A DNA stretch of 64,000 nt from NCBI GenBank assembly GCA_964519305.1, contig CAZFHY010000001.1:282132-346131 (forward strand). The letters run 5' to 3'. This stretch comes from Candidatus Undinarchaeota archaeon (GTDB lineage: Archaea; SpSt-1190; JASMDC01). The notes beneath the pieces were generated by a model. The model was not told where the DNA came from, did no database searches, and worked only from the letters and a program-made list of their open reading frames with translations. Within the stretch, counting starts at the first letter, position 1, and each line of letters starts with the position of its first letter. Below, piece after piece: positions 5,258 to 35,070 of the stretch. The translations under genes were made by a program, and so were the position numbers.

Positions 5258-5267
5258 GGCGATGGGA

Positions 5268-5293
5268 GAAGCCTGAACCTTCAAATAGGCTTC
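5268..5293 (-). promoter_or_regulatory. Degenerate copy of the GT-C promoter palindrome
   Basis: gaagcct gaacct tcaaat aggcttc; GAACCT is at the same offset from ATG 5257, and there is a 7-bp IR GAAGCCT/AGGCTTC. Confidence 0.5.
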
Positions 5294-5300
5294 GGCGACA

Positions 5301-5864
5301 TCATGTCCTGTCCTCGTCCCCGCGGGGGGAGAACCGCATCATGATGACGTCCGGGCCAACCCGACGCTCCTCAAGCACATATCCGTGGTCCTGAAGCACA
5401 CCCGTTATGTATCCAGCGAGGAAATTGGCGAACACGGGCTCTTCCACTGCGTTCTGCGCGGTGATTTCCAGAAAGCCCTCCTCGCGCTTCCAAGAGAGGA
5501 GCGGGAACCATCCGGCGAACTTGTAGGCGTCCCGGAACACCTCCAAACAGTGCTTGACGTTATGTACGTCAGGGAACACCGTCTTGTAGAAGGATAGGAA
5601 GTTCGAGCTCTTTCGGGTACCCAGCTTGAAGGCCCCATCCTCATCGATCCCCTCGCGGTATGCCTCCAGGATATCACGTACGTCCGAGGCGCGTAGCGTG
5701 ACGCCGTGCTGAAGCTTCATCCACTGCTGGTAGCATACTGTATCCCCGAGCGATGTGGTCAGGGCCCTGTGCCGGTTGGAGAGGTTGAAGGCCTCGATGA
5801 GCACGTCGAGGATGTCAACCGCTCGCTTGTCGGCCGAGAAATTGAGTTGTATGCGTGCCGCCAC
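5301..5864 (-). CDS. Hypothetical protein, possible transcription regulator (RHH-like N-terminus, V4R-like C-terminus)
   Basis: 187 aa, GTG start. N-terminal beta-alpha-alpha-like pattern (RIQLNFS...AVDILDVLIEAF.LSNRHRAL). C-terminal FLEITAQN...FANFLAGYITGVL...VIMMRF resembles V4R-type small-molecule-binding domains. Fold call is inference. Confidence 0.5.
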   Translation of the reverse strand: MAARIQLNFSADKRAVDILDVLIEAFNLSNRHRALTTSLGDTVCYQQWMKLQHGVTLRASDVRDILEAYREGIDEDGAFKLGTRKSSNFLSFYKTVFPDVHNVKHCLEVFRDAYKFAGWFPLLSWKREEGFLEITAQNAVEEPVFANFLAGYITGVLQDHGYVLEERRVGPDVIMMRFSPRGDEDRT

Positions 5865-6060: not shown

Positions 6061-6891
6061 TTAATTCTCAATACCTTTAGGGAAGGCTTTCCGTCCCTCG
6101 GATGTGGAGCTGCACGGAGGCGGGGCCGGCTGGACGACCATCCGGTCGAAACCGCGGTCTTCAAGGTCACGAGGAAGCACCTTATTGCGGTAGAATACCG
6201 TGTTCCCGCGGAGCAGGAGAGGGAGAGGCATGCTCTTGTGGGTGAGGGTGAAGGCCAGGTCCCGGCACTCGCGCTCGCAGGGCAGGATCCCGAGCTCGTC
6301 ACGGGCCTCAGGCTTGGTACAGGCACGGGATAGGCACAGACGTGTTGTTGTGACGTACACCCAAGGAGTATAGATACTACCTTTCATGGGAACCTCGTCC
6401 TCCGCCAAGGAGAAACCGATCCCTTGGAGGGGATTGTCGAACTCCGCACGAGTTACCCCCCGCTCGTGCAGGAACTGTCGATAGCTCTCCTGAGAGAGCG
6501 GTGAATCGCGAAGATATGCCTGCGCCTCCTCGGGAAGTCGTTCGATCACGTTTATCAGGCGCGGGCCACGCCGCTGGTAGGTGAGGATCCGGCCCATGAT
6601 GGGAACGTGGTCCTTCAGGGATGCCAACAGCCCCCAGTCGTTGAAGACTACCTCGGAGCCGGAGGGAAGGACGTCCAGAAGCTTCCGCACCTTCGACAGT
6701 CCCGTGTCCGTGAGATAAGGAGTGACCAGTGTGAGGGGGATACTTGCGTCCTTTGCCGCCTCCAGTCCGCGTGATAGCTCCTCCGGTGTGGGGAGGTTGC
6801 GCTCGCAGAACTCATTTCCGAGGTACACACGTTCATAGCCCTCGGGGATCCCTCCGACGGGGACCGTTGAGAGCAGCACGGCGCGCTCCAT
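6061..6891 (-). CDS. U32-family partner subunit (UbiV/TrhP-like small subunit), copy 1
   Basis: Start MERAVLL at ATG 6891, TGATG overlap with the upstream U32 gene. YLGNEFCERNLP, LTLVTP, EVVFNDWG, TTRLC, PCEREC, LRGNTVF. Confidence 0.75.
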   Translation of the reverse strand: MERAVLLSTVPVGGIPEGYERVYLGNEFCERNLPTPEELSRGLEAAKDASIPLTLVTPYLTDTGLSKVRKLLDVLPSGSEVVFNDWGLLASLKDHVPIMGRILTYQRRGPRLINVIERLPEEAQAYLRDSPLSQESYRQFLHERGVTRAEFDNPLQGIGFSLAEDEVPMKGSIYTPWVYVTTTRLCLSRACTKPEARDELGILPCERECRDLAFTLTHKSMPLPLLLRGNTVFYRNKVLPRDLEDRGFDRMVVQPAPPPCSSTSEGRKAFPKGIEN

Positions 6892-8027
6892 CAGCATTCC
6901 ACCTCTTTGCACCAGTCAACCTCAGGATAATAGCAGGAATCAATGTCGCATGGCATACCAAAACGCCTCCGATAATCTTTCTTGACGCGGGTGAAGAACG
7001 TATCCCGGTCAGGTTCCTCCTCAATTAAGTATTTAATCAGTTCGGCGACGAACCGCGTATCCGCCACCTTCCGGGCCGTGGGGAACACACGGCCGACGAT
7101 CTTGAAGCTGTCCACGCCGGCCTGCCATAGGTCATAGAGCGCACAGGCACCACAATTCGCTTGCACCTTGCGACCGAGGATCGACCGCACCCGGTCTGAA
7201 GCGGAGCCGGCCACAGGACCCTTACCGGTAACGGAATAGGTGTACCGACATGGATTGTAGACATGAGAAATAGCGCGCTCGATCGGGCCAGTCTCCGTGG
7301 CCTTTCGGGGGAGCCGGGCACCAATGGCGAGAGCGTGGGGATGGAAAAGCACACGGACTAGCAACCGGCCAAGGTAGGGATGGATCGGGTGAAGGACGTC
7401 CTCGTGGCCATGTTGGAATGTACAGTAACCCTCGATATTGCGGCAGCGGCCGTTTAGCACGAACGCTTCCAGCTCGATATCAGGTACTTTCTGACGGATG
7501 TGTCTTATCTCGTCCGTGGTTAGCTGGCGCTCAAGTATGATACGCGAAAGGCCGAGCTCCTTGAGGAAGCTAACACTCTCGCTGTTGAAGGTTGACAGAC
7601 CTGTGCTAGCGCAGATCCGGGCATCCGGATAGGCCTCCCGTGCCGCGAGTATGAGCCCGATATCGGAGATGATCACCGAGTCGATGTCACACGCTAGAGC
7701 ATCACCGAGCCATTCGAGGACACGCTCGTGCTCACCGTCCACGTACACGTGGGCGTTAAGGGCGAGGTACGCCTTCACGTCCCGGTCATGAGCTTCCCGG
7801 ACCACCTGACGGAGCTCGTCTAGCCCGTTGAGGGAAGCGAAATCCATATACCGGCGGTTGAATGCGATAACAGTGGAAAAATCACGTTTCCATGTACGAG
7901 GGAGCACACCGCAGTATATCTCGGTCGCACCTGCGTCGACCAGAGGCCCTACCTCAGATGGATCGCTCAGGGGAGCGGCGAGGGCGGGTCCTTGTGAACG
8001 CGCACCCCTTCCGTGCCCCGGTGGCAT
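6891..8027 (-). CDS. U32-family Fe-S protein (UbiU/TrhP/RlhA-like large subunit), copy 1
   Basis: LAAP..AGATEIYCG, DSVIISDIG, STFNSE, RIILERQL, ELEAFV, CRNIEGYC, CGACAL, SFKIVGR, terminal C...CYY. Start ATG 8027 chosen by TATA spacing. Confidence 0.85.
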   Translation of the reverse strand: MPPGHGRGARSQGPALAAPLSDPSEVGPLVDAGATEIYCGVLPRTWKRDFSTVIAFNRRYMDFASLNGLDELRQVVREAHDRDVKAYLALNAHVYVDGEHERVLEWLGDALACDIDSVIISDIGLILAAREAYPDARICASTGLSTFNSESVSFLKELGLSRIILERQLTTDEIRHIRQKVPDIELEAFVLNGRCRNIEGYCTFQHGHEDVLHPIHPYLGRLLVRVLFHPHALAIGARLPRKATETGPIERAISHVYNPCRYTYSVTGKGPVAGSASDRVRSILGRKVQANCGACALYDLWQAGVDSFKIVGRVFPTARKVADTRFVAELIKYLIEEEPDRDTFFTRVKKDYRRRFGMPCDIDSCYYPEVDWCKEVEC

Positions 8028-8046
8028 GCGCTGGCATCGTAGTAGC

Positions 8047-8062
8047 AATTATTTAAATCAAG
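8047..8062. promoter_or_regulatory. Shared bidirectional TATA box (U32 copy 1 / methyltransferase)
   Basis: attatttaaatc lies about 23-24 nt from both ATG 8027 (-) and ATG 8081 (+). Confidence 0.55.
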
Positions 8063-8080
8063 CTTATGGCGGTTGAAGCG

Positions 8081-8944
8081 ATGTCCTCGTCCTGGAGGAT
8101 GCTCCGTTGCCCACGCGACAGCTCACCCCTCGAGGAGGTGGACGAAGGGTTGCGGTGTCCCTCATGTTCATGCACCTTTCCCGTGGTGGACGGCGTGCCC
8201 GACCTCCTTGTGGACGAACCAGGTAACGAACTTGATAACTACTTCCGCCGTTGGCGTACCAAGAGCATAGAGGACCCTAACACCAACGACTACGCCCGAG
8301 CGCAGCGAGGGACCTTTCTTGAACGTACCTTCCACAACCGTCGCCTGGCCAGCTATCGGCGCCTTATGACGAAGGCCACTCAGGGACGCGAGCTGGGACT
8401 AGTGGTTGATCTGGGTTTCGGCACCGGTTATACGATTGATATCCATCCCCCGTGCGAGCGCCTCATCGGCCTGGAAATCAGCCGAGACAACATCGCCACC
8501 TGTCGCAAGAACATGGGAGAGCGATGCCCATCGCTTGTGCGAGGTGACGTGTACTCGCTACCCTTCGACGACGGTTCAGTGGACATGCTCTCAATGTTCT
8601 ACGTGTTCCATCGCCTCCAGCAGGACATGCTGATGAGAGAAGTCAAGCGGGTGCTACGCCCCGGTGGCGTCTTCGTGTTCACCGCCCCCTGGCACTATGC
8701 CTACCTATGGAACCAAGGTATACGGCGGTTGTTCCACCGCATAGGCATCTTCTCGGACTCGCCCGAGATGCGTATCTCCTTCGACGTCCCCATCCTGCGG
8801 TTCAGGACGTCTGATGTGCGTTTCCTTGCCTACGAGGTCCCGGGTATCCGGTGCAAGGAGGCCTACGTGGTCCCATCGCTCATGGAGATCCATGTAGTGT
8901 TCGTCAGGGAGGACAAACCCGAGACGTGCAAGTGCCCCGGTTGA
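8081..8944 (+). CDS. Class I SAM-dependent methyltransferase with N-terminal Trm112-like zinc ribbon
   Basis: LRCPRD...LRCPSC...FPVVDGVPDLL; VVDLGFGTG; GDVYSLPFDDGSVD; EVKRVLRPGG. Confidence 0.85.
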   Translation: MSSSWRMLRCPRDSSPLEEVDEGLRCPSCSCTFPVVDGVPDLLVDEPGNELDNYFRRWRTKSIEDPNTNDYARAQRGTFLERTFHNRRLASYRRLMTKATQGRELGLVVDLGFGTGYTIDIHPPCERLIGLEISRDNIATCRKNMGERCPSLVRGDVYSLPFDDGSVDMLSMFYVFHRLQQDMLMREVKRVLRPGGVFVFTAPWHYAYLWNQGIRRLFHRIGIFSDSPEMRISFDVPILRFRTSDVRFLAYEVPGIRCKEAYVVPSLMEIHVVFVREDKPETCKCPG

Positions 8945-8950
8945 AATCCA

Positions 8951-10687
8951 TCATTCTCCAGCAGGCCCCACTCGATAAAGAGCCAGCTCGGTGGAAGCAC
9001 CGAAGGCCTCGACCCATTTCAGCGAGATGGGGACCGTATCAATTCGCTCCAGACTTAGACTGCTGCCGGCCAAGGCGTCGCGTGCGTTCGCGGTCCCCTG
9101 GGAGTCGTAGAGGTAGACGCACTCGCCCCGGTCCACCAGAGCGATCACGTCCCGGACAAGCTCTTCGCCGGTCGTAGGCAGAAGGAAGAACGACTCGACA
9201 TGCACCATCCGACGCCCCCAAAGGTGCTCGGCGCGCACGGGGACCGAGGCGACCACGTGGCACGACGGCTCCACACCGTTCCGCCACCTAGCCACAGTAC
9301 GCTCCTCGAGAGCGAGATAATCACGTACGTCGGGGGGGATGCCATCCCCCACAGCCACACGTGGGTAAAGGAGGACTATGAGAATCGCACCTATGGTGGC
9401 CAGTGCCGCCAGCAACCGTCGTTCCCGACCCCCTGCCCGTCCTGCCGCCCAGAGAAGGAAGGCAACGGGGAGGAGCAGATGGATAGCGTATAGGATTGCC
9501 CTCGCTCCAGCGTCCAGCTGGAGCCCGAACATATCACCATAGGCGAACGGTAAGTAAGCGAGTCCCGAGAGGAGGATGGCTGTGGCGATTGACCGCTGTG
9601 AACAGGTAAGGGTGCGTGCGCCCAGGCCACAGGCGATGGCGAAGGGGACCGAGAGGCCGATCATGTACCTTGGCACGAAGAACATGAAGTCGTGAAGGAG
9701 GAACACTACAAGACGGGCCGACCACCAGAACGTCACCAAGAGCGTCAGTGTGCTTGAGCGACCGGCGAGAGCGACCATCCCGAGCGCCGCAAGGGCAGTG
9801 AACAGGAACGGAGTGAAGTATCCATTGAACCAGTAGAGGACATAGTCCAGATTGCGTGCCAGAGAGGACGTCCCGAGACGATCAGTAACATCATTATACC
9901 CCATGCTCATCTCGAACCATCCTGCCACGTACGGCGTCAGGAGCACTAGCGCTACGATCCAAGGGACCGGAGAATACCTGACACCCTTGCGCCGGCCCCA
10001 CCAGTACACCATCATGAGCGGGACAAGGACGAGAGGATTCTCCTTGCGGACTGTCATGTGGAAGGCCAAGGATGCTGCGGTCAGCCATGCTGCGGAGGAG
10101 CGCCCCGTTCGGACGTGAAGGGCCGCACCCAGAACGGTCAGGCACTCGGTGAGCACTGAGAGCACAACGAGCCGCGTAGTGGCGCCGTACCGCAGGTGCA
10201 TCGGGAGAAGGGCAAGTATGAGAGCCGCCCAGAGCGCCGACTGATGGTCCCGGAACAGGATTCGCACGAGCAAGTAGACCAGAGCTATGGTGAGCGTACC
10301 ACCAAGCACACCCACCGTCCTTGCAGCCAGTTCGGTGAATCCGAGGATCGACGAGGTCAGGCCCAGCACAAGTGGGTAACCGATGCCGTCGAAGGTCGCG
10401 AACTGTTGACAATCGCCCATCCGGCCACGGACGCAGAAAGCGTTGAGGCGGTGGTGCACAAGGCCTTCGGCCTGTCCCACGGGGTACCATTCGTCAAGCC
10501 AGAGCAGGTGATGGTAAGGGTTCACCGCCCGCAGCACCAGACCCAGGAAGAGCACCGTGAGCAGGGCACGACGGCCCGAGACAGTGTTTGGTAGATAGGC
10601 CGACAACTCTCGGCGCGAGGCGACCAGCGCACCAGCGATGACCAGAAGGTTCACCAGGGCGAAAGGCAGCGCCAGAGGCGACGGCAT
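8951..10687 (-). CDS. GT-C fold membrane glycosyltransferase, paralog 4
   Basis: 578 aa; MPSPLALP, WLDEWY, FCVRGRMGDC, IGYP, LLPMHLRY, GECVYLY. Confidence 0.85.
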   Translation of the reverse strand: MPSPLALPFALVNLLVIAGALVASRRELSAYLPNTVSGRRALLTVLFLGLVLRAVNPYHHLLWLDEWYPVGQAEGLVHHRLNAFCVRGRMGDCQQFATFDGIGYPLVLGLTSSILGFTELAARTVGVLGGTLTIALVYLLVRILFRDHQSALWAALILALLPMHLRYGATTRLVVLSVLTECLTVLGAALHVRTGRSSAAWLTAASLAFHMTVRKENPLVLVPLMMVYWWGRRKGVRYSPVPWIVALVLLTPYVAGWFEMSMGYNDVTDRLGTSSLARNLDYVLYWFNGYFTPFLFTALAALGMVALAGRSSTLTLLVTFWWSARLVVFLLHDFMFFVPRYMIGLSVPFAIACGLGARTLTCSQRSIATAILLSGLAYLPFAYGDMFGLQLDAGARAILYAIHLLLPVAFLLWAAGRAGGRERRLLAALATIGAILIVLLYPRVAVGDGIPPDVRDYLALEERTVARWRNGVEPSCHVVASVPVRAEHLWGRRMVHVESFFLLPTTGEELVRDVIALVDRGECVYLYDSQGTANARDALAGSSLSLERIDTVPISLKWVEAFGASTELALYRVGPAGE

Positions 10688-10704
10688 GAAGCGTTGAGGG
10701 AGTT

Positions 10705-10722
10705 GAACCTTTATAGAGCTTC
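10705..10722 (-). promoter_or_regulatory. TATA box in near-palindrome GAACCT-N6-AGCTTC (promoter of GT-C paralog 4)
   Basis: gaacct ttatag agcttc at the same offset from ATG 10687. Confidence 0.65.
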
Positions 10723-10772
10723 CGCGCGGCGACCCGCGAACCCTTATAACGCTTTACGACCGAGTAACCGAC

Positions 10773-12437
10773 GTGTGCGGCATCGCCGGGATCGCAGGAT
10801 TCCAGGACGACGGTCTCCTCGATAAGATGGTGACGTCGCTCACGCACCGCGGTCCAGATGACGTGGGTACGTTCCACTCAAATGATCTCTCATTGGGAGC
10901 ACGTCGACTGGCGGTCATCGACCCGGCCGGGGGACACCAGCCCATGGTGGGCGAGGATGGTGATACTGCCGTGGTGCTCAATGGTGAGATCTACAACCAC
11001 GTACAGCTGCGTGCATGGTTGGAGGGGCGAGGCCACGAGTTCTCCTCAGCATGTGACACCGAGGTAGTCCTCCACGGCATCGAGGAGGAGGGGACGGCCT
11101 TCCTCTCGCGCATGGAGGGGATGTTCGCCCTGGCAATGTGGGACGGGCCACGGTTGGTGCTTGCTCGCGACCGGCTTGGGATCAAGCCAATGGTGTACAC
11201 CCAACGCGGCAGTGACCTTCTCTTCGCCTCCGAGGTCAAGGCTCTGTTCAAGGATCCCGAGCTTACACGGGAGGTCGACCGCGAGGCGCTGGCACAGCGG
11301 TTCGTGCTCGGATACCCGCTTGATGGGCGCACGTTGTTCGCCGGCGTCCGCTCGCTCGCCCCGGGCACGGCACTGGTGTGGGACGCACGCTCAGGATCAG
11401 TCGTGGATAAGACACCTTTCTGGGAACTGCCTAAAAGGACTGTGGAGTTAGTTGACCCCGCCACTGCAGCAGATGAACTGGCAACTGCCCTGGAGGATGC
11501 CGTGCGCTCACAGCTAGTAGCGGACGTTCCCCTGGGCGCCTTCCTCTCCGGTGGCGTTGACTCGGCCCTCATCGCTGCCTTGGCCAACGAGCATATGGAC
11601 ACGCCATTGCGCACCTTTACACTGGGCGAGAGCCACAATGATCCGGATGTCATCGCTGCGCGTGCTGTGGCCGAGACCGTGGGCTCCGACCACACCGAAC
11701 TGGTCGTCGCTCCCGAGGACGTAGCGGCCCTCGTCCCGCGGTTCGTGCTCCACATGGAGCAACCCAACTACGAGTCCGTGTTCTTCCTAGCGCTCGCCGA
11801 GGTCGTGCGCCGACGCATGACGGTTGCACTGTGCGGCCAGGGCGCTGATGAGCTATTCGGTGGCTACCCGCGATACTCCTCCCCCCGACGCTACGGTGCC
11901 GAGGTGCGATGCACACTTCGCCGGATCGCCTCTAGCGCGTCATGGGTGGACGGTCTCCACACCAAGATGTCGCTCATACGCACATCCGGTGACCTGATGG
12001 ACCACGAGCTCGGGCCCCAGCTCGCTGCGTTCCAGCTCAGTGTCGTGGACCGTGCGTCCATGGCAGCAGGGCTCGAGGTCCGTGTCCCTTACCTCGCCAC
12101 TCCCGTCGTGGAACTCTCACGACGGATGGACACGCGACTTATGTTCGAGAGCGGTGCGGCGAAAGCAGTGCTACGACGTGTGGCACGGAAGAAGCTCCCC
12201 CCCAAGATCGCGGACCGGCCGAAGCGTGGTGCAGGACCGTTCACCACGCCCAGGGGCGCCCTCATCTTCGAGCAGGAGGCATGCGATCTCATGGATGACA
12301 AGCGCGTGGCCCGCCACCCCTATCGCAAATTCTTCCGGAGGCGGAGCGAGCTTGTTTGCATGGACATCCTCGCCCACTCGTTGATCGAAGGCGACGGTCA
12401 GCTCCCTGATAAGTTCACACCGGGAGACTTGTACTGA
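10773..12437 (+). CDS. asnB: Asparagine synthase (glutamine-hydrolysing)-type amidotransferase
   Basis: N-terminal MCGIAG, HRGPD, RLAVID, NGEIYNH, DTEV, ARDRLGIKP, FASEVKAL, LSGGVDS, GQGADELFGGY, DRASMAAGLEVRVPYL. Confidence 0.92.
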   Translation: MCGIAGIAGFQDDGLLDKMVTSLTHRGPDDVGTFHSNDLSLGARRLAVIDPAGGHQPMVGEDGDTAVVLNGEIYNHVQLRAWLEGRGHEFSSACDTEVVLHGIEEEGTAFLSRMEGMFALAMWDGPRLVLARDRLGIKPMVYTQRGSDLLFASEVKALFKDPELTREVDREALAQRFVLGYPLDGRTLFAGVRSLAPGTALVWDARSGSVVDKTPFWELPKRTVELVDPATAADELATALEDAVRSQLVADVPLGAFLSGGVDSALIAALANEHMDTPLRTFTLGESHNDPDVIAARAVAETVGSDHTELVVAPEDVAALVPRFVLHMEQPNYESVFFLALAEVVRRRMTVALCGQGADELFGGYPRYSSPRRYGAEVRCTLRRIASSASWVDGLHTKMSLIRTSGDLMDHELGPQLAAFQLSVVDRASMAAGLEVRVPYLATPVVELSRRMDTRLMFESGAAKAVLRRVARKKLPPKIADRPKRGAGPFTTPRGALIFEQEACDLMDDKRVARHPYRKFFRRRSELVCMDILAHSLIEGDGQLPDKFTPGDLY

Positions 12438-12478
12438 CCGGTCTGTACGGTCGGTGTTCTAGGGACATCGTGGTCCCG

Positions 12479-12955
12479 TTACATAAGGTAGCCGCTGTTC
12501 GCTGCGAGGAAGGGTGCTTCGTACTGGAGGAAGTAGTCGTGGACCTCGTTCCCCATGCCCATGACGTGGTAGCCCTCATGCATGAGCACTTCTGCTATGG
12601 CCGACGCACCATATCCGAGCATGACGGGTGACACGACGACCTCGCCGGGCGTTGCCGTCGTGGTCTGGCCCCCAACGTAGGTGTGGGCGAGACCGCCAGA
12701 TGCGCCAAGACTGGGATTGTACGTAGGCAGCCCTTTCTGGCTGGCCATCTCTCTGTACATCTCACAGGCCTTCTCCCAGGTCCTGAGCGGCTCGAGCGCC
12801 CTGTCATGGAAGAACGCCGCCGTGACGTCTTCGTACGCGGTCGAGGTGGCGTAACGATCGTTGAGATCGAAGGATTCGCCGTCAGTGTAGGAAAGGACCT
12901 TCTCAAGGTCGTCACCGTCCCGATAGCTGGATCTCTCGAAATCGTCGTTATGCAT
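12479..12955 (-). CDS. Acidic hypothetical protein with HEXXH zincin motif
   Basis: Start ATG 12955 downstream of GGGGAAAGGTTTTTATA (BRE/TATA, about 12984-13000). EVLMHEGYH..GMGNE. Confidence 0.65.
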   Translation of the reverse strand: MHNDDFERSSYRDGDDLEKVLSYTDGESFDLNDRYATSTAYEDVTAAFFHDRALEPLRTWEKACEMYREMASQKGLPTYNPSLGASGGLAHTYVGGQTTTATPGEVVVSPVMLGYGASAIAEVLMHEGYHVMGMGNEVHDYFLQYEAPFLAANSGYLM

Positions 12956-13109
12956 GCTCGTGCCGGATTTTGTGCCATTCCCCCTATAAAAACCTTTCCC
13001 CGGGAACCGTCGTGCGTACCGGCAACTAACGCAGAACAAGGAGCAGGCAGGAACGCATTATTGAAGAGCTCAAGTAGTTCTATATAGCTATCCCCTATAG
13101 GAATGTCCG

Positions 13110-14207
13110 ATGGATATCCTTGCCCCTGTCAACAGGGCGGATGAGGTCGAGCAGCTCATCCGTTCGGGGGCTGCGGAGATCTATTGCTCGGTGCTCTCAC
13201 CCCAATGGCGGGAGCGCTATAGCAATGTAGGGAGCATCAGCAGGGAGGAGTTCACCCTCTCGTCCCTTCGCTCCTACGAGGAGCTTGAGCAGGTCACGTC
13301 CATCGCCCACGACAACGGTGCCCGTGTTTCCGTAGCGTTCAACCAGGATTTCTACTCATCCAAGCAGCTACCCCTCGTGCTCAAGGAGGTCGACCAGGCC
13401 GTCGGCGCAGGGATAGATAACCTCATCATAGCCGACGTGGCGCTCATGGCAACGCTCCGGGACCGTGAGGTGGAGTGCGATGTGCACGCAAGCTCCATCG
13501 CAGCTGTTTTCAACGCTCGTGCGGCCCGGTTCCTCCAGCGCCTGGGTGTATCCCGACTCATCCTCCCGCACCATCTCACCCTGAACGAGGTGCGAACGCT
13601 CGCCGAGCGGGTGCCCGATATACCCCTTGAGGCCTTCGTGCTAAACGCCCGGTGCCCCAACGTCGAGGGATTCTGTGGTTATCTCCACGGCCTCCTCGAG
13701 ATCGCCTACCCGCGCCGGGCAGGAGCCCTATTCAGCGTCCTCGGGAGCAGATGGGGGGCCGCCCGGAGCACTATCGTAGGCGCTCTCCTCCGGCTCCCCC
13801 GATGGTCACAGCGTCTCGGTCCGCTGGCACATCACGCATCGCTCTATCTCTGTCCCAACGCCGCCGCTGTGCGCGTATCCTGCCTCGAGGGGGACCATGC
13901 TCTCGCCCCCGCTATCGAGGAACGATTCGGGATGGACTGGTGCCCCAACGTGGGCGGCATCGGTTGCGGCGTATGCGCTCTGGGGATGCTGCGCGATGCG
14001 GGTGTCAGCGTGGTCAAGGTACAAGGGCGTAACTACCCGACAGCAAAGAAGCTGGCGGACGTCCGGTTCTTGCGCTCAGCGCTCGATGCTCTCGAGAATC
14101 TTAAGGGTGGGGACACTTTCCATGAGCGGTGTCGCGCCCTGTACTCCGACAGTTATGACCGGCCATGCTCACTTGCTGAGTGCTACTGGCCTGAGGAGGT
14201 GCGGTGA
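13110..14207 (+). CDS. U32-family Fe-S protein large subunit, copy 2
   Basis: MDILAP, SGAAEIYC, DNLIIAD, AVFN, RLILP, LEAFVLNARCPNVEGFC, CGVCAL, VVKVQGR, C...CYW. Confidence 0.85.
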   Translation: MDILAPVNRADEVEQLIRSGAAEIYCSVLSPQWRERYSNVGSISREEFTLSSLRSYEELEQVTSIAHDNGARVSVAFNQDFYSSKQLPLVLKEVDQAVGAGIDNLIIADVALMATLRDREVECDVHASSIAAVFNARAARFLQRLGVSRLILPHHLTLNEVRTLAERVPDIPLEAFVLNARCPNVEGFCGYLHGLLEIAYPRRAGALFSVLGSRWGAARSTIVGALLRLPRWSQRLGPLAHHASLYLCPNAAAVRVSCLEGDHALAPAIEERFGMDWCPNVGGIGCGVCALGMLRDAGVSVVKVQGRNYPTAKKLADVRFLRSALDALENLKGGDTFHERCRALYSDSYDRPCSLAECYWPEEVR

Positions 14208-15007
14208 TGGAACGGGCAGTGCTAGTTTCCCGCGCACCGCTCCTCGACACGCTCGACTGGACCGGGTACGACCGGCTCTACCTGGGCAACGGATACTGCC
14301 AACGGCTCATCCCCACGCCCGACCAGCTCAGGTCCGCCCTGGACCGGGCGGACGACGCACATATCCCGCTCACCCTTGTCACTCCGCCCGTAACCGATAA
14401 TGGGCTCGACGATCTTGGCCCCGTCCTTGATCTCCTACCAAAAGGTGCAGAGGTTGTGGCCAACGACTGGGGTGTCATCGACCTTGTCGCCGAGGCTGGA
14501 CGGCTCCAGCCGGTTGTCGGCGGCCTTCTTCACAAGCAGAAGCGCGGACCGCGCATCATGATGGCGAAGGACCTTCTCCCTCCAGAGGCATGGGATCGAT
14601 TTCGCACGTCGAACATGGACGTGGTCGCTATGCGCGAGATCCTGGCCTTGTACGGGATCAAACGGGTCGAGGTCGAGAATCCCTTCCAAGGCGTGTCGCT
14701 TGACCTTGCCGGGGGCGAAAAACCACTCTTTGGCTCGCTCCACCATCCCTATGTCTGCGTCACTATGTCGAGATACTGCCTATTAGCACTGGCCTCGACC
14801 AGGCAAGGCCTGCCAGAATGGGGCATCTACCCCTGCTCCCGTATGTGTACAAATTCCAGTTTCCAGCTCGACCATCCGACCATGGGCGTCCCACTCTACC
14901 TCAAGGGATGTGCCGTATTCGTAAAGAACGATGCACTCCCCGGTGATAAGGAGCTGAAGGACATGGGCATCGACCGGACAGTGGTATCGCAGATACCACC
15001 TGCATGA
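14207..15007 (+). CDS. U32-family partner subunit, copy 2
   Basis: TGATG overlap with the upstream gene. MERAVLV, YLGNGYCQRLIP, LTLVTP, EVVANDWG, SRYC, PCSRMC; clear paralog of 6061-6891. Confidence 0.75.
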   Translation: MERAVLVSRAPLLDTLDWTGYDRLYLGNGYCQRLIPTPDQLRSALDRADDAHIPLTLVTPPVTDNGLDDLGPVLDLLPKGAEVVANDWGVIDLVAEAGRLQPVVGGLLHKQKRGPRIMMAKDLLPPEAWDRFRTSNMDVVAMREILALYGIKRVEVENPFQGVSLDLAGGEKPLFGSLHHPYVCVTMSRYCLLALASTRQGLPEWGIYPCSRMCTNSSFQLDHPTMGVPLYLKGCAVFVKNDALPGDKELKDMGIDRTVVSQIPPA

Positions 15008-15013
15008 GTCCGC

Positions 15014-17176
15014 TCAAGTGGCCTGTGAGACCGCTAGTCGTCGGTCACCGTCGTTCGTGCGAAGAACGAGCGTTCTTACGTCCTCGCCCGGGAGAACGCG
15101 GAGAGCGCCCGTCGATGTTGCCTGGAGCGATGCACCGCAGTGAACATGGCAGCTGGTACCCGATGCAGGGTGTACTTCGATAACTAGCTCGTCGCCGATC
15201 CGCGATGCGTCCAGATGCAGTAGCGTGCACTCTCCGGGTGCACTCGTTCCGAATCTGATGATCGGTGAGCTGGCGACAGGACCCGGGATGACGAGTGGCT
15301 TCCCGGCCCATCTCGTCGTAAGGAGGGAGAACCTCCAAGGACCCTCACCTCCGCTTCGCAGGTCCAGAACAATATCACTGGCGTCCACGTTGAACCGTGG
15401 CCGATAGCAGTCGAGTTCCTCGATCCTGCGAGAAGGCCCGGCCGCTCCCAGTTCTGTGATGATCGCGGCAGGATCGTACTCCAGGTCGGCCGGCTGAAGG
15501 GGTAGGATCTTGGGCGATATCAGAGCTAGCTTGTGGTACGTGAGCTCATCCGGGTCCGGGGGAGTGATGATGCGGTTGACCTTGTTCCATCTTGGATCGG
15601 GCGGGACGTCATACACTTGGACCAGCGCAGCGAATGTGGTGATGGCCACAATACCAACAACGACCAGCTCAGGCCACTGGCCAGCCCGACGCAGACCACC
15701 CAGCGCGAGCACCGACAGTGCTGGCATGACCAGCAACAACAGCCCCATCCGCGGCTCGTTCCAGTTCTCCTGGACACTGAGGAATATCCAGAGCGGGAGA
15801 ATCCATAGGATCAACACATTCAATGCCCGACGGTCCGAACCGACCAGCTCCTTTAGACCCGGTAGGACCATGGCCAGCAGCGGCCAGCCCAAGGTCGCGG
15901 CCACCACCAGCGGGAGGAGGACGAACACCGGGAAGGGGTAGAGCGGGGTCCTGACAACACTGCCATGTAGGGGCCAGTTCATGAGCACCGGGAGCCGGAA
16001 GTCCACACCGAGCACACTGTAATCGAAAGGTTCGACATAGGTATGCTTCGCAATTGCCTCGGTAGTGAAGGGGGCGTTGTAAGCGTACTGGTGCCAGAAG
16101 AGCCAAGGGAAGGCCGAGAGCAACGCTCCGATGACGAGGGCGATGACCGCTGCGCGCCACCTTCGTTGGCCGGTTAGTGCGTAGAGAACGGCAGGCACTA
16201 GGAGCACGGACACGTCTCGCACTCCCACCAGCATCCCTAGAAGGAGACCAGCTACGAGGGCGGGTCGTATCCCCCTCTCGAAGAGCACGACATGGAGCAC
16301 TGCGGCCGAGAGCACGAAGGCGAAGAGCGGATCCGTGAGCAGGTACACGAAGGAGATGTCCAGGAGACCGAGACCGAGCACGGGGAACGCGAGAAGGGGT
16401 GTGAGGGTCCCGCCGAAGAGACGGCGGGTGATTATGTACCCCCAAGAGCATATGAGGGCCCCGAAAAGTGAGAAAGCAAACCGGACCCCGAAGATGCCAA
16501 GGAAGGAAACGAAAAGAGCGAATATCGCGGTATTACCGAGTCGCTGGTCCTTGGTGGCCACACGGCCATAGGCAATGAGGTTGTCAGGCAGCGTCCGTGG
16601 TGGGACCGTCAGATAATATGTGTTCTCCACTCCAGGAGAGCGGGTTCCCGTTGGTAACGGCTCCGGAGCGCGGGGGTAGTAGAACACGGATCCCGGATTC
16701 TCGATCACGGAGGACGCGAGCCATGTGACGCGTCCGAGCCCCATGGCATGGTACATCGCCTCCTGTGTACATGTCTGCCAGTAGCTCTCTGCCAGCGGAG
16801 TGGGGATGTCGCGGACCACGCTCAGATAGAGCAGGAACATCCCGGCGGCTAGAGCAAGGGCCACCAATCCCAAGTGACCGGGGGGTGGTACATGACCTAG
16901 TCCGTGGTGTGCCGGGCCGTGCCGGGAGACTTGAAGCAAATGCGGTAAAAGGAAGATAACGAGTGCCGCTGCGAGGAACGTGACCGGACCTATTAGAACG
17001 CCAACCATAAGGGCGATGGCCATGGCGAGAGCTGGGACCACAGTGACCGATATCGTGAAAGCGAGGACGACCTCCTCGGCATCCCTGCCGGGACCGAGGG
17101 TCCAACGTGCCATCGGACGACCTGTGAACCACAAGGCCAGGGTGAACACCACCACGGCCGCTAGCTCAAGCAGCAT
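15014..17176 (-). CDS. Large polytopic membrane protein, GT-C-like glycosyltransferase
   Basis: 720 aa; multiple TM helices, GLLLGMLVGVRD...LLVP, PWLFWHQYAYNAPF pattern typical of GT-C proteins, C-terminal soluble domain. Confidence 0.65.
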   Translation of the reverse strand: MLLELAAVVVFTLALWFTGRPMARWTLGPGRDAEEVVLAFTISVTVVPALAMAIALMVGVLIGPVTFLAAALVIFLLPHLLQVSRHGPAHHGLGHVPPPGHLGLVALALAAGMFLLYLSVVRDIPTPLAESYWQTCTQEAMYHAMGLGRVTWLASSVIENPGSVFYYPRAPEPLPTGTRSPGVENTYYLTVPPRTLPDNLIAYGRVATKDQRLGNTAIFALFVSFLGIFGVRFAFSLFGALICSWGYIITRRLFGGTLTPLLAFPVLGLGLLDISFVYLLTDPLFAFVLSAAVLHVVLFERGIRPALVAGLLLGMLVGVRDVSVLLVPAVLYALTGQRRWRAAVIALVIGALLSAFPWLFWHQYAYNAPFTTEAIAKHTYVEPFDYSVLGVDFRLPVLMNWPLHGSVVRTPLYPFPVFVLLPLVVAATLGWPLLAMVLPGLKELVGSDRRALNVLILWILPLWIFLSVQENWNEPRMGLLLLVMPALSVLALGGLRRAGQWPELVVVGIVAITTFAALVQVYDVPPDPRWNKVNRIITPPDPDELTYHKLALISPKILPLQPADLEYDPAAIITELGAAGPSRRIEELDCYRPRFNVDASDIVLDLRSGGEGPWRFSLLTTRWAGKPLVIPGPVASSPIIRFGTSAPGECTLLHLDASRIGDELVIEVHPASGTSCHVHCGASLQATSTGALRVLPGEDVRTLVLRTNDGDRRLAVSQAT

Positions 17177-17299
17177 ATGGCCCCGGTCTCGCGGTGCAAC
17201 AATAAAACGTTATGCCACCCGGGCACATGGCCGGGATCGAGGCAAACGTTTTTCAAGTGAAGTGACCGACCATTCCCCATGGTTGAGACCGGTAACGGG

Positions 17300-18436
17300 A
17301 TGAGCACCGTTGCCCTTGTCAAGTGCGATGACTACGACGAAGAGAACGTGCTCTCGACGGTCCGACGTTCAGTGGACCTTCTGGGAGGGATGAAGACCTT
17401 CGTAGGGAACGGCCAGCGAGTGCTCCTCAAGGTCAACCTCCTTCGCGGGGACCGACCCGAGCGGGCGGTCACCACACATCCCGCCGTTGTCCGTGCCGTG
17501 ACGCTCCTTGTCCAGGAGGCTGGTGGCGAGGTAGTTATCGGTGACAGCCCCGGAGGCCCCAACAGCGTCATGCTCCTGCGACGAGCCTACAAGCACAGCG
17601 GGTACGAGCAGGTCGCAAAGGAAACGGGAGCCTCCCTGAACGAAGACCTATCCTCCGCGCTGATACCTTGTCGTGGCGGACAATTGATCAAAGAGCTGGA
17701 CATCCTCAATGCAGTAGAGAGCGCTGATGTGGTCATCCCCCTCCCCAAGCTCAAGACCCATGTGCTCACGGGATTCACCGGCGCCACCAAGATCCTCTTC
17801 GGAGTGATCCCCGGCCTCACAAAGGCAGCATACCATGTCAAGCTCCCGGACGTGGACCAGTTCTCCCATATGCTATTGGACATCGTGGCCCATGTACGGG
17901 CTCCCCTGTACATCATGGACGGTGTTGTGGCCATGCATGGGGACGGCCCCGGCGCAGGTGATCCGTTCCCCGTAGGAGGGATGCTCGCAGCTACCGATGC
18001 CGTGGCCATGGACCGGACGGCCGCCGCTCTTGTGGGGCTGGCACCGGATGGTATCTCGACCCTGTCCGCTGCCGCTGAACGCGGGATGGGCCCCGCTTCA
18101 CTGGATGATATCGATATTGTGGGCGACGGGCTGGACGCGTTCTCAATCACTGGATTCCGCACCGCCTCAGCGCCCTCGAAAATCGGCCGCAGGCTCCCGA
18201 ATATCGTTCGCCGGATCACCCTTGGACAGACCGTTTCATCGCCCTACGCCGGCCCCAAGTGCATCGGATGCGGTGTGTGCGCAGCAGCTTGCCCCGTCAA
18301 GGCCATCACCATCACCGACAAGCGCGCCCACATGGACCTGTCGACTTGCATCCGATGCTACTGTTGCCACGAGACCTGTCCCGAGCAGGCGGTGGAGCTG
18401 CAAAGGCCATTGCTGTCGCGCATATTTGGGTCGTAG
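17300..18436 (+). CDS. DUF362 domain protein with C-terminal 2x[4Fe-4S] ferredoxin domain
   Basis: VLLKVNL, TTHPAVV, GDSPG, LPKLKTH, TGATK..FG, DGVVAM.GDGP; CIGCGVCAAACP and CIRCYCCHETCP. Confidence 0.88.
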   Translation: MSTVALVKCDDYDEENVLSTVRRSVDLLGGMKTFVGNGQRVLLKVNLLRGDRPERAVTTHPAVVRAVTLLVQEAGGEVVIGDSPGGPNSVMLLRRAYKHSGYEQVAKETGASLNEDLSSALIPCRGGQLIKELDILNAVESADVVIPLPKLKTHVLTGFTGATKILFGVIPGLTKAAYHVKLPDVDQFSHMLLDIVAHVRAPLYIMDGVVAMHGDGPGAGDPFPVGGMLAATDAVAMDRTAAALVGLAPDGISTLSAAAERGMGPASLDDIDIVGDGLDAFSITGFRTASAPSKIGRRLPNIVRRITLGQTVSSPYAGPKCIGCGVCAAACPVKAITITDKRAHMDLSTCIRCYCCHETCPEQAVELQRPLLSRIFGS

Positions 18437-19400: not shown

Positions 19401-20555
19401 TCAAGGCAGAGCGCCCGCGTCACGAAGTATCGCATCCTCTCGCTCGAACACCGCCTCGCGCCCATAAGGAGATGCCGCTTCGCGGTTCACCGCGCCCATC
19501 CTGGCTGCGAGCTCAGGATTATCGGCCACACGGGCCAAAGCGCTCCGCAGCTTTCGAGGTGACCGCGGTTGCACAAGGAAGCCCCCTTCATGAGGGAGCA
19601 CGTTCGCGATGCCCTCGACGTCGGTGGCCACCACAGGCAGCCCCGCGCCCATTGCCTCGATGAGGGCGAAGGGCATCCCCTCCTCCTCGGAGGCCATAGC
19701 GAACACGTCGGCCGCGGCGAGCACATCAGGCACTTCACCGGATGGGACCGCGCCGAGAAAAGTGGCGTCCGCGCCTTCTTTTTCAGCTAGGGAAACGAGG
19801 GCTTCGCGCTCCGGACCGTCGCCGCACGCGACCAGACGTATGCCCGAAAGCCCGGCCACGGCGCGGACCAGATCGTCCACCCGCTTGATCTCGGCCAACC
19901 GGCCAACGAACACGACCAGACGACCGTCCTCGGGAATACCGTGGCGCTCTGCCAGCCGTTTCCGCGCTGCTGCCCGGTCCGGTGCTTTTTTAGGGAGGTC
20001 GACCCAGTTGGGGAGCACCTCGACCTGGTCCGGGCGGGCGCCCTGGGCTTCGAGCCGCTGACGCATCAGGTCTGTGCTTGTGATTATCCGGTCCGAGTGC
20101 CGTACGACCATCCTGTACACCTGTGAGACGAACGGGCCAAGGAGAGGGGACCGGTGACGGCGCATCTGACCCATCCAATCGTACTCCAGGGAAAGTACAA
20201 CCGGGGGGTGTGAGCTGACACTGGAGAGACCCAGCGCTACGGGGACGATGCCCACGGGCCCGTACACACGGACAGCGGTGAGGGTGGACGCAAGACGACG
20301 CACGGCCGCTGCTCCGCTGAGCACGAAACCAGGGTGCGAACGGCCCACGGGCAGGTGGATAACACCTTCCCCGAGCTCGTCGCTCATGTCCCGCTCGTCC
20401 GCGCTGAGTAGGATCACGCGGTCGTACAGCTTCCGGTAATGGTCGACCCGCGCGCGTACAAGCTTGTCGAACACGCCACGCTCGCATCCCTCCTCGAGAC
20501 GACAGTCGGTGGAGTACACCAGGAGCAGTGTCGAAGTCGACTCCATACCGGCCAT
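19401..20555 (-). CDS. GT4 (GT-B fold) glycosyltransferase
   Basis: LPNWVD, VFVGRL..IKRVD, CGDGPER, ADVFAMASEEEGMPFALIEAMGAGLPVVAT. Confidence 0.92.
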   Translation of the reverse strand: MAGMESTSTLLLVYSTDCRLEEGCERGVFDKLVRARVDHYRKLYDRVILLSADERDMSDELGEGVIHLPVGRSHPGFVLSGAAAVRRLASTLTAVRVYGPVGIVPVALGLSSVSSHPPVVLSLEYDWMGQMRRHRSPLLGPFVSQVYRMVVRHSDRIITSTDLMRQRLEAQGARPDQVEVLPNWVDLPKKAPDRAAARKRLAERHGIPEDGRLVVFVGRLAEIKRVDDLVRAVAGLSGIRLVACGDGPEREALVSLAEKEGADATFLGAVPSGEVPDVLAAADVFAMASEEEGMPFALIEAMGAGLPVVATDVEGIANVLPHEGGFLVQPRSPRKLRSALARVADNPELAARMGAVNREAASPYGREAVFEREDAILRDAGALP

Positions 20556-20608
20556 CACGGTCACCTGTCCCACGAAGATTTATATTGCCTTCGCGGTCAG
20601 TTGGTTGC

Positions 20609-21709
20609 ATGGCCAAGCCCGCCAGTGGTGTCGACCGGCTCGGTACCCTCGAGAAGGCCCGCTTCCTTGCTGGCGGCCTTGTCGAGTCCTCGCGGGTAGG
20701 CCTTGACCGTCTGAAAGGATGGGAGCGCCCACGGTTCCTGATGAACGTGGTCACTTGGCGGTGCAACGCCCGTTGCGTGATGTGCAACATACCTCGCCGT
20801 CACGATCCGAAGGAGGAGCTCGGGCTGGACGACTACCGCCTAATCCTAAAAGACCGACGGTTCTGGCGTGGTCTGCGGGCCATGAACGTCACCGGTGGCG
20901 AACCGTTCCTGCGCGAGGACCTGCCCGATCTGGTGGCGATGTTCGACGAGGCCTGTCCCGGGCTCGAACGTATCGCCTTCTCCACTAATGGCATGCTCAC
21001 CGACCGTGTAACCTCCGCCATGAAGGAGGTGCTCGAGCGTGTGCGCGTGCCCATCGACGTCACCGTGAGCCTCGACGGTGTGGGTGAGGTCCACGACCGG
21101 ATCCGCGGCGTGGATGGGGCTTTCGAAAAAGTCATGGCCACCGTGGACGCGCTCCTCCCTATGGACGAGCCAGGACGGTTCCATCTCTACGGCCAGTGCA
21201 CGCTCTCCCAGGCCAATATCGCAGGCTGGCGCGAACTGGAGGCTTACGCTGCCGAGCGGGGATTCCATGTTTCCCCAGGCATCTCGGCATTCCTGGACTC
21301 CTACTTCGACAACGCCGATAAGGAGGACGAACTGGCGCTCACGTCCGAGCAGGTGCTCGATGTGTTCGACCGACCAACGGCACGCGAGCACTTCATCCGC
21401 CGGCAGGTGCGCGAGCACGAGCGGTCACTTCCCTGTGGTTGTGGCACCGGGTCCTTCGAGCTCTACCCCAACGGCGATGTCTACCTCTGCTACCAGACGA
21501 AGCCGGTGGGGAACGCCCTCGAGCTTGGTATCACGGGGGCGTGGACATCCCCCGAGGCGGCGAAGGTGCGCAAGGCCATCGGCACCAAGAAGATGTGCGG
21601 TGATTGCTTCTGGGCGTGCGACCTGGCCACGGCGGTGAAAGGGGACCTCGGTTCTCTTGTACGCATGGGTGCTGCCCACGTCCGGATGAAGCTCGGTCCC
21701 AAGGCGTGA
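20609..21709 (+). CDS. Radical SAM protein with SPASM/twitch domain
   Basis: CNARCVMC, TGGEPFLR, STNG, VSLDG...HDRIRG, C-terminal CGCG...GDVYLC...CGDC...C. Start ATG 20609 shares a TATA (about 20578-20586) with the divergent GT4. Confidence 0.9.
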   Translation: MAKPASGVDRLGTLEKARFLAGGLVESSRVGLDRLKGWERPRFLMNVVTWRCNARCVMCNIPRRHDPKEELGLDDYRLILKDRRFWRGLRAMNVTGGEPFLREDLPDLVAMFDEACPGLERIAFSTNGMLTDRVTSAMKEVLERVRVPIDVTVSLDGVGEVHDRIRGVDGAFEKVMATVDALLPMDEPGRFHLYGQCTLSQANIAGWRELEAYAAERGFHVSPGISAFLDSYFDNADKEDELALTSEQVLDVFDRPTAREHFIRRQVREHERSLPCGCGTGSFELYPNGDVYLCYQTKPVGNALELGITGAWTSPEAAKVRKAIGTKKMCGDCFWACDLATAVKGDLGSLVRMGAAHVRMKLGPKA

Positions 21710-23376: not shown

Positions 23377-23504
23377 GACCTCTTGGGCTTGAGGGATAGA
23401 TATCCTTTAAAGCCTTTTGCTATCCGACCGAGAACCGGTTCTATTCAACATATAACGTTTGGGTGACCTCTGCACCTAGCGACACCGACGCAGATGGTGA
23501 CCTC

Positions 23505-25711: not shown

Positions 25712-25790
25712 AGCCGTATTACCAAAGGTGCTACTTGTTTTTAAATATTGACAGGTGTTATATAATACGCAGTACATAGAGGAGAGTATC

Positions 25791-35064: not shown

Positions 35065-35070
35065 GAGCTG

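Follow-up and report, generated by a model that had tools for sequence, protein, structure and literature searches.

Two paralogous pairs of genes for predicted U32-type iron-sulfur subunits in a glycosyltransferase-rich region of an Undinarchaeota archaeon

In the cited portions of the literature, the characterised iron-sulfur (Fe-S) proteins of the U32 family have all been tied to the hydroxylation of aromatic or pyrimidine carbons (PMC10990095, PMC5727448, PMC11574389). The relevant sections of one of these reports present them as the only known enzymes tied to hydroxylation with an organic oxygen donor, with three functions described and most subfamilies uncharacterised (PMC10990095). Prephenate as the oxygen donor was shown for ubiquinone by genetics and 18O labelling of the UbiUV system, and the mechanism proposed in the same sections oxidises an aromatic ring and needs an electron acceptor still to be found (PMC10990095). 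The cysteines are spaced CX6CX16CX38C in UbiU and CXnCX12CX3C in UbiV, i.e., C39 followed by C180-X12-C193-X3-C197, as given in the cited part of a preprint (10.1101/587956). Here we describe two gene pairs in a 64,000-nt stretch of DNA (hereafter the window; contig CAZFHY010000001.1, positions 282,132 to 346,131) from a Candidatus Undinarchaeota archaeon. Each pair consists of a large gene for a predicted U32 protein and a small gene from a family without annotation, and the two products very probably form a heterodimeric, U32-like Fe-S enzyme.

The coordinates of both pairs are given in Table 1. In each pair the TGA codon of the large gene and the ATG codon of the small gene overlap by one base (contexts cggTGATGgaa and tgcTGATGgag), and reading out the DNA gave tgcTGATGgagcgc at 6893-6889 for the pair 1 junction and cggTGATGgaacgg at 14204-14209 for the pair 2 junction. 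The motifs GGAGG and GAGGTGG lie directly 5' of the start codons of the small genes, whose products share the N-terminus MERAVL. A first-pass annotation of this DNA had noted two translationally coupled pairs with these features, and they were confirmed in the DNA and in the open reading frames (ORFs). At the sequence level the two pairs are paralogous, with 35% identity between the large subunits (E = 1e-65) and 44% between the small subunits (E = 5e-74). Hidden Markov models (HMMs) of the large family (A2) and the small family (A1) found exactly two pairs and no further copy over the 64 kb; large subunit 1 matched A2 at E = 1.8e-108 and small subunit 1 matched A1 at E = 6.2e-93.

The closest related genome record (L002), a metagenome-assembled genome of a Candidatus Undinarchaeales archaeon, has 85-87% identity and the same gene order as the window, and it holds two more pairs on other contigs (L004 and L042). 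In a tree of large subunits, large subunit 1 groups with the large subunit of the third pair, L004 (support 99/97), and large subunit 2 pairs only with its L002 orthologue; the two window copies are old paralogues. We favoured ATG 8027, the start given in the first-pass annotation, for large subunit 1 because a TTTAAATA box at 8057-8050, ∼23 nt upstream, fits an archaeal promoter. The ATG of the divergent methyltransferase gene (8066) is 9 nt from this box and 38 nt from the large subunit 1 ATG. The methyltransferase may truly start further downstream; otherwise both genes would be served by one bidirectional promoter of unusual compactness.

Modelling supported the heterodimer proposed in the first-pass annotation. 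The complex model of large subunit 2 and small subunit 2 (P0003 + P0004) scored 0.94, vs. 0.00 for the best of three controls, a mark attained for 116 of 157 solved complexes and for 2 of 215 mismatched pairs (a rough calibration here, custom alignments having been used). Contact agreement between runs was at least 96% and the partner had a predicted local distance difference test (pLDDT) value of at least 91. Since the PDB holds no sequence relative, the score does not simply reproduce a complex of known structure. The predicted interface is formed by residues 181-192, 244-262, and 354-362 of chain 1 and residues 185-198 and 201-227 of chain 2. It holds the Cys loops of both chains, which in the model suggests Fe-S clusters facing each other across the dimer.

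The pairing is also found in related genomes. We surveyed the 80 best related loci of 319 matches in species-representative genomes. The large gene adjoins the small gene in 52 loci (upstream in 33, downstream in 19) and lies elsewhere within the locus in 3, and 8 loci ended too close to the gene to be judged. In one 659-residue protein (P0196, encoded on a single 3.9-kb contig) a large subunit (residues 1-347) is fused to a small one (413-655). This fusion, which has an RLP-containing insert like the window large subunits, is a sole record and may be an assembly or frameshift artefact.

By Pfam and by predicted fold the large subunits are true U32 proteins. PF01136 was matched by large subunit 1 at E = 1.3e-31 (110.1 bits) and by large subunit 2 at E = 1.7e-28 (99.9 bits; gathering threshold 22.4), the best stretch covering only profile positions 6-106 of 233. 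An AlphaFold2 model of large subunit 2 from a 48-sequence alignment had a pLDDT of 79.7, dropping to ∼50 in an insert region discussed below. The top PDB match of this model in a Foldseek search was 5d88, the U32 protein Mk0906 (E = 2.8e-8, TMt 0.55, rmsd 3.5 over 185 columns); a sequence search of the PDB with the large subunits gave no match. To our knowledge 5d88 is the sole solved U32 structure. Within the large family (48 sequences) seven cysteines are invariant and one is nearly so, and all eight (C26, C182, C189, C248, C286, C289, C353, and C358) are kept in both window copies. The first four conserved cysteines have a UbiU-like spacing in most relatives (CX6C-X15-18-C-X37-C), with four more conserved cysteines beyond. 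The window subunits deviate from the canonical U32 motif CX6CX15CX3/4C: the CX6C part is kept, the third Cys comes after 57-58 residues and the next one 37 further on.

The small subunits gave no Pfam match at E 10, no NCBIfam match at E 1, and no PDB sequence match at E 10, and BLAST of small against large subunits returned nothing. When 1.84 billion representatives were scanned in full with HMMER, 1125 small-family members with E ≤ 1e-3 were detected, of which 630 had E ≤ 1e-10; the family comprises at least 1125 clusters at 50% identity. Across 66 family sequences three cysteines (C32, C192, and C215) never vary and a fourth, C211, shows at least 90% conservation. All four are kept in both window copies and follow the UbiV-like order C-Xn-C-X18-C-X3-C, with the first Cys far upstream. 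The AlphaFold2 model of small subunit 2 is barrel-like (pLDDT 95.5). Its best TM-score in the PDB was to 5d88 (0.47/0.50), and GH18 (chitinase-type) barrels rank above it by E-value. Aligned with hhalign, the small and large families gave a probability of 88% (E = 3e-6) over 92 N-terminal columns only. As a lead only, of the ESM Atlas clusters that have a Pfam family, the closest (score 0.81) carries PF01136 on 37% of its members. The alignments of the small family to single E. coli sequences (UbiV, P = 0.0084, with C32 opposite C39; UbiU, P = 0.035) were weak and were not used as proof. On remote homology and predicted fold, the small subunit appears to be a remote and strongly diverged U32-like barrel.

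The first-pass annotation had assigned both subunits to U32 and spoken of complete two-subunit modules with intact Cys sets. The assignment holds for the large subunit through PF01136; for the small subunit no family model supports it, and the case is one of remote homology and predicted fold. Measured against the family positions the Cys sets are complete (four of four and eight of eight), and the modules appear to be of the UbiU/UbiV kind, not orthologues of known enzymes; from their cysteines we infer metal binding.

Fusions of the small domain were also observed. Eleven of 14 longer small-family representatives scanned (P0067, P0070, P0072, P0086, P0089, P0093, P0105, P0112, P0115, P0140, and P0130) combine the small domain with a class I methyltransferase of the TPMT/TehB-like type, in either order, and in P0130 (1220 residues) a B12-radical S-adenosylmethionine (SAM) domain, a glycosyltransferase (GT) domain of the GT1 type, the small domain, and the methyltransferase form one chain. 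The fusions suggest a hydroxylate-then-methylate logic in some lineages. We considered the window methyltransferase and GT4 as counterparts of the domains fused in P0067 and P0130 and rejected them, the similarity being generic and at fold level only.

The window large subunits carry an insert of ∼40 residues between the second and third Cys, and the hydrophobic and basic peptides quoted for it in the first-pass annotation are present in P0001 and P0003. The Cys2-Cys3 spacer measures 57 residues in large subunit 1 and 58 in large subunit 2. Among 59 aligned full-length rows (57 locus homologues and the two window copies) it was 15-18 residues in 39 rows and 47-58 in 12, and an RLP core is conserved in the insert of 9 of these 12. 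The insert-bearing subgroup branches at the base of the large-subunit clade, and the insert is a subgroup feature, not noise. Most of it lies outside the predicted dimer interface. It had been described as amphipathic; 11-residue hydrophobic moments did not stand out from those of ordinary barrel helices (one stretch of large subunit 2 is in the top six, none of large subunit 1), and a membrane anchor of this type was rejected. A lid for a substrate or a partner is equally possible.

Table 1. Coordinates of the two gene pairs and of neighbouring genes in the window (GT-C, glycosyltransferase of the GT-C type).
Feature	Position	Strand	Family matches and remarks
Large subunit 1	8027..6891	-	Predicted U32 TIM-barrel Fe-S protein; ORF open from TTG 8048, likely start ATG 8027
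Small subunit 1	6891..6061	-	Cryptic U32-like protein; UbiV-like four-Cys layout; MERAVL start at ATG 6891-6889
Large subunit 2 (P0003)	13110..14207	+	Predicted U32 TIM-barrel Fe-S protein; 58-residue spacer
Small subunit 2 (P0004)	14207..15007	+	TGATG overlap with large subunit 2
GT-C (PMT_2)	1-1638, runs off window	-	PF13231, E 2.5e-6
GT-C (PMT_2)	1685-3445	-	PF13231, E 7e-9
GT-C (PMT_2)	3494-5284	-	PF13231, E 7e-13
unk187 (187-residue ORF)	5301..5864	-	No Pfam or NCBIfam match; between small subunit 1 and GT-C run
Class I SAM methyltransferase with N-terminal Trm112-like zinc ribbon	8066..8944	+	Methyltransf_11, 1.5e-16; Trm112p, 3.5e-5; divergent from pair 1
Fourth GT-C (PMT_2)	8951..10687	-	PF13231, 3.4e-10
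AsnB-type glutamine-dependent amidotransferase	10773..12437	+	Asn_synthase, 3.3e-64; TIGR01536, 403.8 bits vs. 267
P0193, 720-residue polytopic membrane protein	15014..17176	-	No Pfam match; convergent with pair 2
DUF362 protein with 2x[4Fe-4S] ferredoxin domain	17279..18436	+	DUF362, 5.4e-54; Fer4 models
GT4 (Glycos_transf_1)	19401..20573	-	PF00534, 9.1e-34
Radical SAM/SPASM enzyme	20528..21709	+	Radical_SAM, 6.6e-15; SPASM, 2.5e-7
GT-C (PMT_2)	23463-25043		

Pair 1 heads a same-strand run that continues through unk187 into three GT-C genes, with gaps of 196, 17, 49, and 47 bp; pair 2 is a two-gene unit between the AsnB gene and the P0193 gene. The family matches agree with the first-pass annotation, in which both pairs were interleaved with GT-C, AsnB, and methyltransferase genes, with a radical SAM/SPASM enzyme and a DUF362-ferredoxin nearby. 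The three GT-C genes nearest pair 1 are tandem paralogues with 45-53% identity. The fourth GT-C gene is absent from the syntenic L002 record, which has no gene between those for the methyltransferase and AsnB and whose large genes are ∼1.7 kb closer to each other. This absence, together with the tandem paralogues, indicates fast turnover of GT-C copy number in the island. P0193 is probably another GT-C: its ESM Atlas feature matches (0.95) are to RgtA/B/C/D-like or PMT_2 clusters, a lead only, and its homologues adjoin pairs in L002 and L042. The DUF362-ferredoxin is a possible electron carrier for the pairs. A homologue of unk187 was found only in L002 (1 of 80 loci), and unk187 and a 186-residue ORF (unk186, 12479-13039), considered as the third gene of a paralogous module, are unrelated.

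In its gene content the window appears archaeal: it also encodes RNase HII, a DUF483 protein, and a geranylgeranyl reductase. A 1463-residue protein with VWA, CARDB, and Ig-like domains (25755-30146) is probably a surface protein, and the region at 33514-38498 encodes CitF (citrate lyase alpha subunit) and a two-gene ATP-citrate-lyase-like set; both are unrelated to the pairs. Scans of the window for tRNA genes and Rfam families gave nothing.

The explanation that we tentatively favour as a whole is a UbiU/UbiV-like dimer that carries out O2-independent oxidation or hydroxylation in the tailoring of glycoconjugates. Each pair would be a heterodimeric Fe-S enzyme built like UbiU/UbiV. The modelled dimer probably holds two or three [4Fe-4S] clusters, and because in the predicted interface the cluster-binding loops of one chain meet those of the other, we propose that these clusters could form an electron path beside a shared active site. 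By analogy with the characterised proteins, the chemistry would most likely be an O2-independent two-electron oxidation or a hydroxylation, possibly with prephenate donating the oxygen; for hydroxylation proper we see slightly less than an even chance. We know of no sequence marker for prephenate use. The electron-rich carbon of some small molecule would be the likely target, rather than RNA or ubiquinone. Here both pairs would belong to a surface-glycoconjugate island, where they would modify a part other than sugar, either in the product or in the lipid that carries it, ahead of transfer by the GT-C enzymes. A non-sugar moiety or the carrier lipid is likelier than a sugar because the proposed mechanism goes via an aromatic cation. 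The lipid-linked sugar suggested in the first-pass annotation as a hydroxylation target appears chemically unmotivated, known U32 substrates being aromatic or pyrimidine carbons. That the substrate is an envelope glycoconjugate at all we consider doubtful.

Several results weigh against this explanation. Genes within 7 kb of the small gene were counted in the 80 related loci: GT-C genes occur in 4 loci and any GT in 17, and the other neighbours seen in the window are also rare (AsnB in 2, a window-type methyltransferase in 2, GT4 in 3). The glycosylation context is not family-wide, and the conserved linkage on which the first-pass annotation had made its reading depend largely failed at family level; DUF483, which it had also proposed to check, was near the small gene in none of the 80 loci. 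Other settings are more common. FAD_binding_4 genes were found in 19 loci, CCG/Fer4_8 genes in 16, and electron transfer flavoprotein (ETF) genes in 11, a GlcDEF-like setting which occurs with or without ETF in Bathyarchaeia, Dehalococcoidia, Hadarchaeota, and Thermodesulfobacteriota; in 8 loci the setting consists of LplA and a small radical SAM gene. With GlcDEF/ETF, LplA, and other settings side by side, the context therefore gives no single substrate. In 17 of the 80 loci the small gene occurs without a large gene although at least 1.2 kb of flanking DNA is available on both sides. The small protein need not always work in a large-small dimer, and in these loci it may have another partner or act alone. 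Further points are the low confidence of the insert region in the large-subunit model, the small reference set of the tree described below, and the lack of in vitro proof of direct hydroxylase activity for UbiU/V, RlhA, and TrhP, as stated in the cited portions of two reports (PMC10990095, PMC11574389).

The small-only loci include L005, L027, L038, L066, L075, and L077, and also L026, L037, L039, L046, L049, L052, and L071. One small-only setting comprises an epimerase, LPG_synthase_TM, GT2, a cupin, and a 244-residue protein without assigned function; another comprises DAHP synthase, TPR, HlyD, AcrB, and Ham1 genes.

The link to glycosylation survives in part for the insert-bearing members. 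In the 8 loci besides the window that have such large subunits, B12- or HMPTM-type radical SAM genes stand beside 7 and GT genes beside 4. These clusters also hold genes for PMT_2, GT2, DegT aminotransferase, carbamoyltransferase, hexapeptide acetyltransferase, NDP-sugar epimerase, and GNAT proteins. The closest bacterial parallel to the window layout was seen in an uncultured Gemmatimonadota bacterium (L073), with two complete pairs in opposite orientation, a third, distant U32 protein (L073:4999-6285), a 985-residue PMT_2 protein, and two B12-radical SAM genes.

The main alternative, possible if unlikely, is a redox or electron-transfer dimer that does not hydroxylate and for which the glycan island is one of several settings. 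Such a dimer could work as a reductase, dehydratase, or lyase on a 2-oxo or 2-hydroxy acid or an aryl-pyruvate-type metabolite, or it could route electrons to the neighbouring radical SAM enzymes. The flavoprotein and Fe-S dehydrogenase modules counted above are the commonest neighbours and speak for a redox role, as do the B12-radical SAM-rich clusters (17 of 80 loci), the DUF362-ferredoxin 2.3 kb from pair 2, and the 12 conserved cysteines per dimer, which make an electron wire plausible. Three loci (L016, L025, and L059) contribute 2-hydroxyacyl-CoA dehydratase genes with their activator. In the GlcDEF-like setting two FAD_binding_4 genes and one for CCG/Fer4_8, often accompanied by ETF, precede the pair; the same three loci also contain genes for methylmalonyl-CoA mutase, MeaB, and BcrAD-type activators, and two for HGD-D dehydratase. 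The combined HGD-D/GlcDEF setting resembles aryl-lactate or 2-hydroxyacid metabolism, and one may speculate on a link to phenylpyruvate, the expected by-product of prephenate-dependent hydroxylation.

A purely redox function fits less well with the full TIM-barrel catalytic scaffold predicted for both subunits, neither of which has a ferredoxin fold, and with Cys spacings that copy those of UbiU and UbiV, whose sole known role is in hydroxylation steps. The flavoprotein and ETF neighbours would suit the hydroxylase equally: the published mechanism, in the sections cited, also needs an electron acceptor (PMC10990095), and this context therefore fails to separate the two readings.

It is highly unlikely that the pairs are housekeeping enzymes that hydroxylate tRNA, rRNA, or a respiratory quinone, as archaeal counterparts of TrhP, RlhA, or UbiUV, and sit in the GT island by chance. 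In the cited parts of the literature, the characterised U32 Fe-S proteins do all act on RNA pyrimidines or ubiquinone precursors (PMC10990095, PMC5727448, PMC11574389), among NCBIfam models the large subunits come closest to TrhP and UbiU, and a Trm112-like methyltransferase gene adjoins pair 1. The scores, however, are far under the equivalog cut-offs: 90.6 and 67.3 bits for large subunits 1 and 2 against the TrhP model NF011996 (cut-off 534), and 80.4 and 84.2 bits against the UbiU model NF047963 (cut-off 440). The UbiV model NF047965 (cut-off 275) gave no match to the small subunits and 12.7-15.7 bits for the large ones. In a maximum likelihood tree (LG+C20+F+G4) 48 large subunits group together as a single clade (support 100/99; stem length 3.6 changes per site). 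The E. coli proteins UbiU, TrhP, and RlhA fall outside it, and UbiV sits on a very long branch. With only these four E. coli references and long branches that meet at the base, the tree shows the clade to be separate from the E. coli enzymes, not its place among the 12 published subfamilies; within that frame the large subunits do not nest with TrhP/RlhA or UbiUV, in line with the first-pass annotation.

Gene content also argues against a housekeeping role. DUF3656, which RlhA carries, is absent from both large subunits, and neither this domain nor any SCP2/UbiT, UbiA, UbiD, UbiX, UbiG-type, or other quinone gene was detected among the 49 window ORFs scanned, as the first-pass annotation had noted for the nearby genes. 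Two old pairs in the window and two more in the nearest record are unlike a single-copy function, and the contexts differ widely across lineages. A collagenase-like U32 peptidase accompanied by an unrelated small protein, as homologue names such as "putative protease" and "collagenase-like PrtC family protease" would have it, is extremely improbable given that these names are automatic, that the large family conserves eight cysteines with Fe-S-type spacing, that the small gene is translationally coupled and adjacent in most of the loci surveyed, and that reviews, in the portion cited, take Cys-motif U32 proteins as Fe-S oxidases (PMC11574389).

If the explanation of a UbiU/UbiV-like oxidising dimer is extended to the whole clade, the latter would be a general two-subunit platform for O2-independent oxygen insertion or oxidation, serving specialised metabolites and surface glycoconjugates in anaerobic bacteria and archaea. 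We consider this extension rather unlikely. Were it true, the platform would fill, under anoxic conditions, the place that P450 or 2-oxoglutarate oxygenases take in biosynthetic clusters, its insert-bearing branch, with both window pairs, would be specialised for the products of clusters rich in B12-radical SAM and GT genes, and the small subunit would be an unrecognised family that marks such systems. The present data add a separate heterodimeric U32 clade whose partner family is unseen by current domain libraries, so that annotation misses half of the predicted enzyme. The settings, B12-radical SAM and sugar-tailoring clusters on one side and GlcDEF-like/ETF modules on the other, suggest substrates beyond RNA and quinones, and the GlcDEF-like/ETF neighbours are candidate electron-acceptor partners for a mechanism that lacks a known oxidant. 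If the chemistry holds, the family would provide a handle on oxygen-independent tailoring in the natural products and cell envelopes of anaerobes. Full-text literature searches, which did not extend to ∼1.7 million PMC articles or to subscription journals, found no paper that deals with this clade or that gives U32 proteins a role in clusters for glycans, lipids, or natural products.

Compared with known systems, the pairs are most like UbiU/UbiV, in that a larger and a smaller U32-type subunit are the products of neighbouring genes and are here predicted to form a heterodimer. In insert-free relatives the large subunits have the Cys spacing CX6C-X15-18-C-X37-C, vs. CX6CX16CX38C in UbiU, and the small subunits have a far-upstream Cys followed by C-X18-C-X3-C, vs. 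CXnCX12CX3C in UbiV. They differ in that the window subunits miss the equivalog models, the small subunit is invisible to PF01136, the large subunits have four extra conserved cysteines in addition to the ∼40-residue insert, and no UbiT/SCP2 or quinone gene lies nearby in the window. The hosts of the pairs are anaerobic uncultured bacteria and archaea, not Proteobacteria. TrhP (YegQ, tRNA ho5U34) and RlhA (YdcP, 23S rRNA ho5C2501) share the U32 barrel with the CX6C motif, and TrhP is the best NCBIfam similarity of large subunit 1; unlike the pairs, both are single-chain proteins without a UbiV-like partner and fall outside the clade in the tree. Mk0906 of Methanopyrus kandleri (5d88) is the best structural match to the large subunit and has the best TM-score to the small one, but it is a single-domain protein with only 18% (large) and 10% (small) identity and was not matched in sequence searches. 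PrtC-type collagenases (U32 peptidase) belong to the same Pfam family and lend their names automatically to homologues, whereas the proteins described here have an Fe-S-type Cys set and an obligate partner gene. The architecture was already known from UbiU/UbiV; what is new is the clade, its partner family without annotation, and the settings in which the genes occur.

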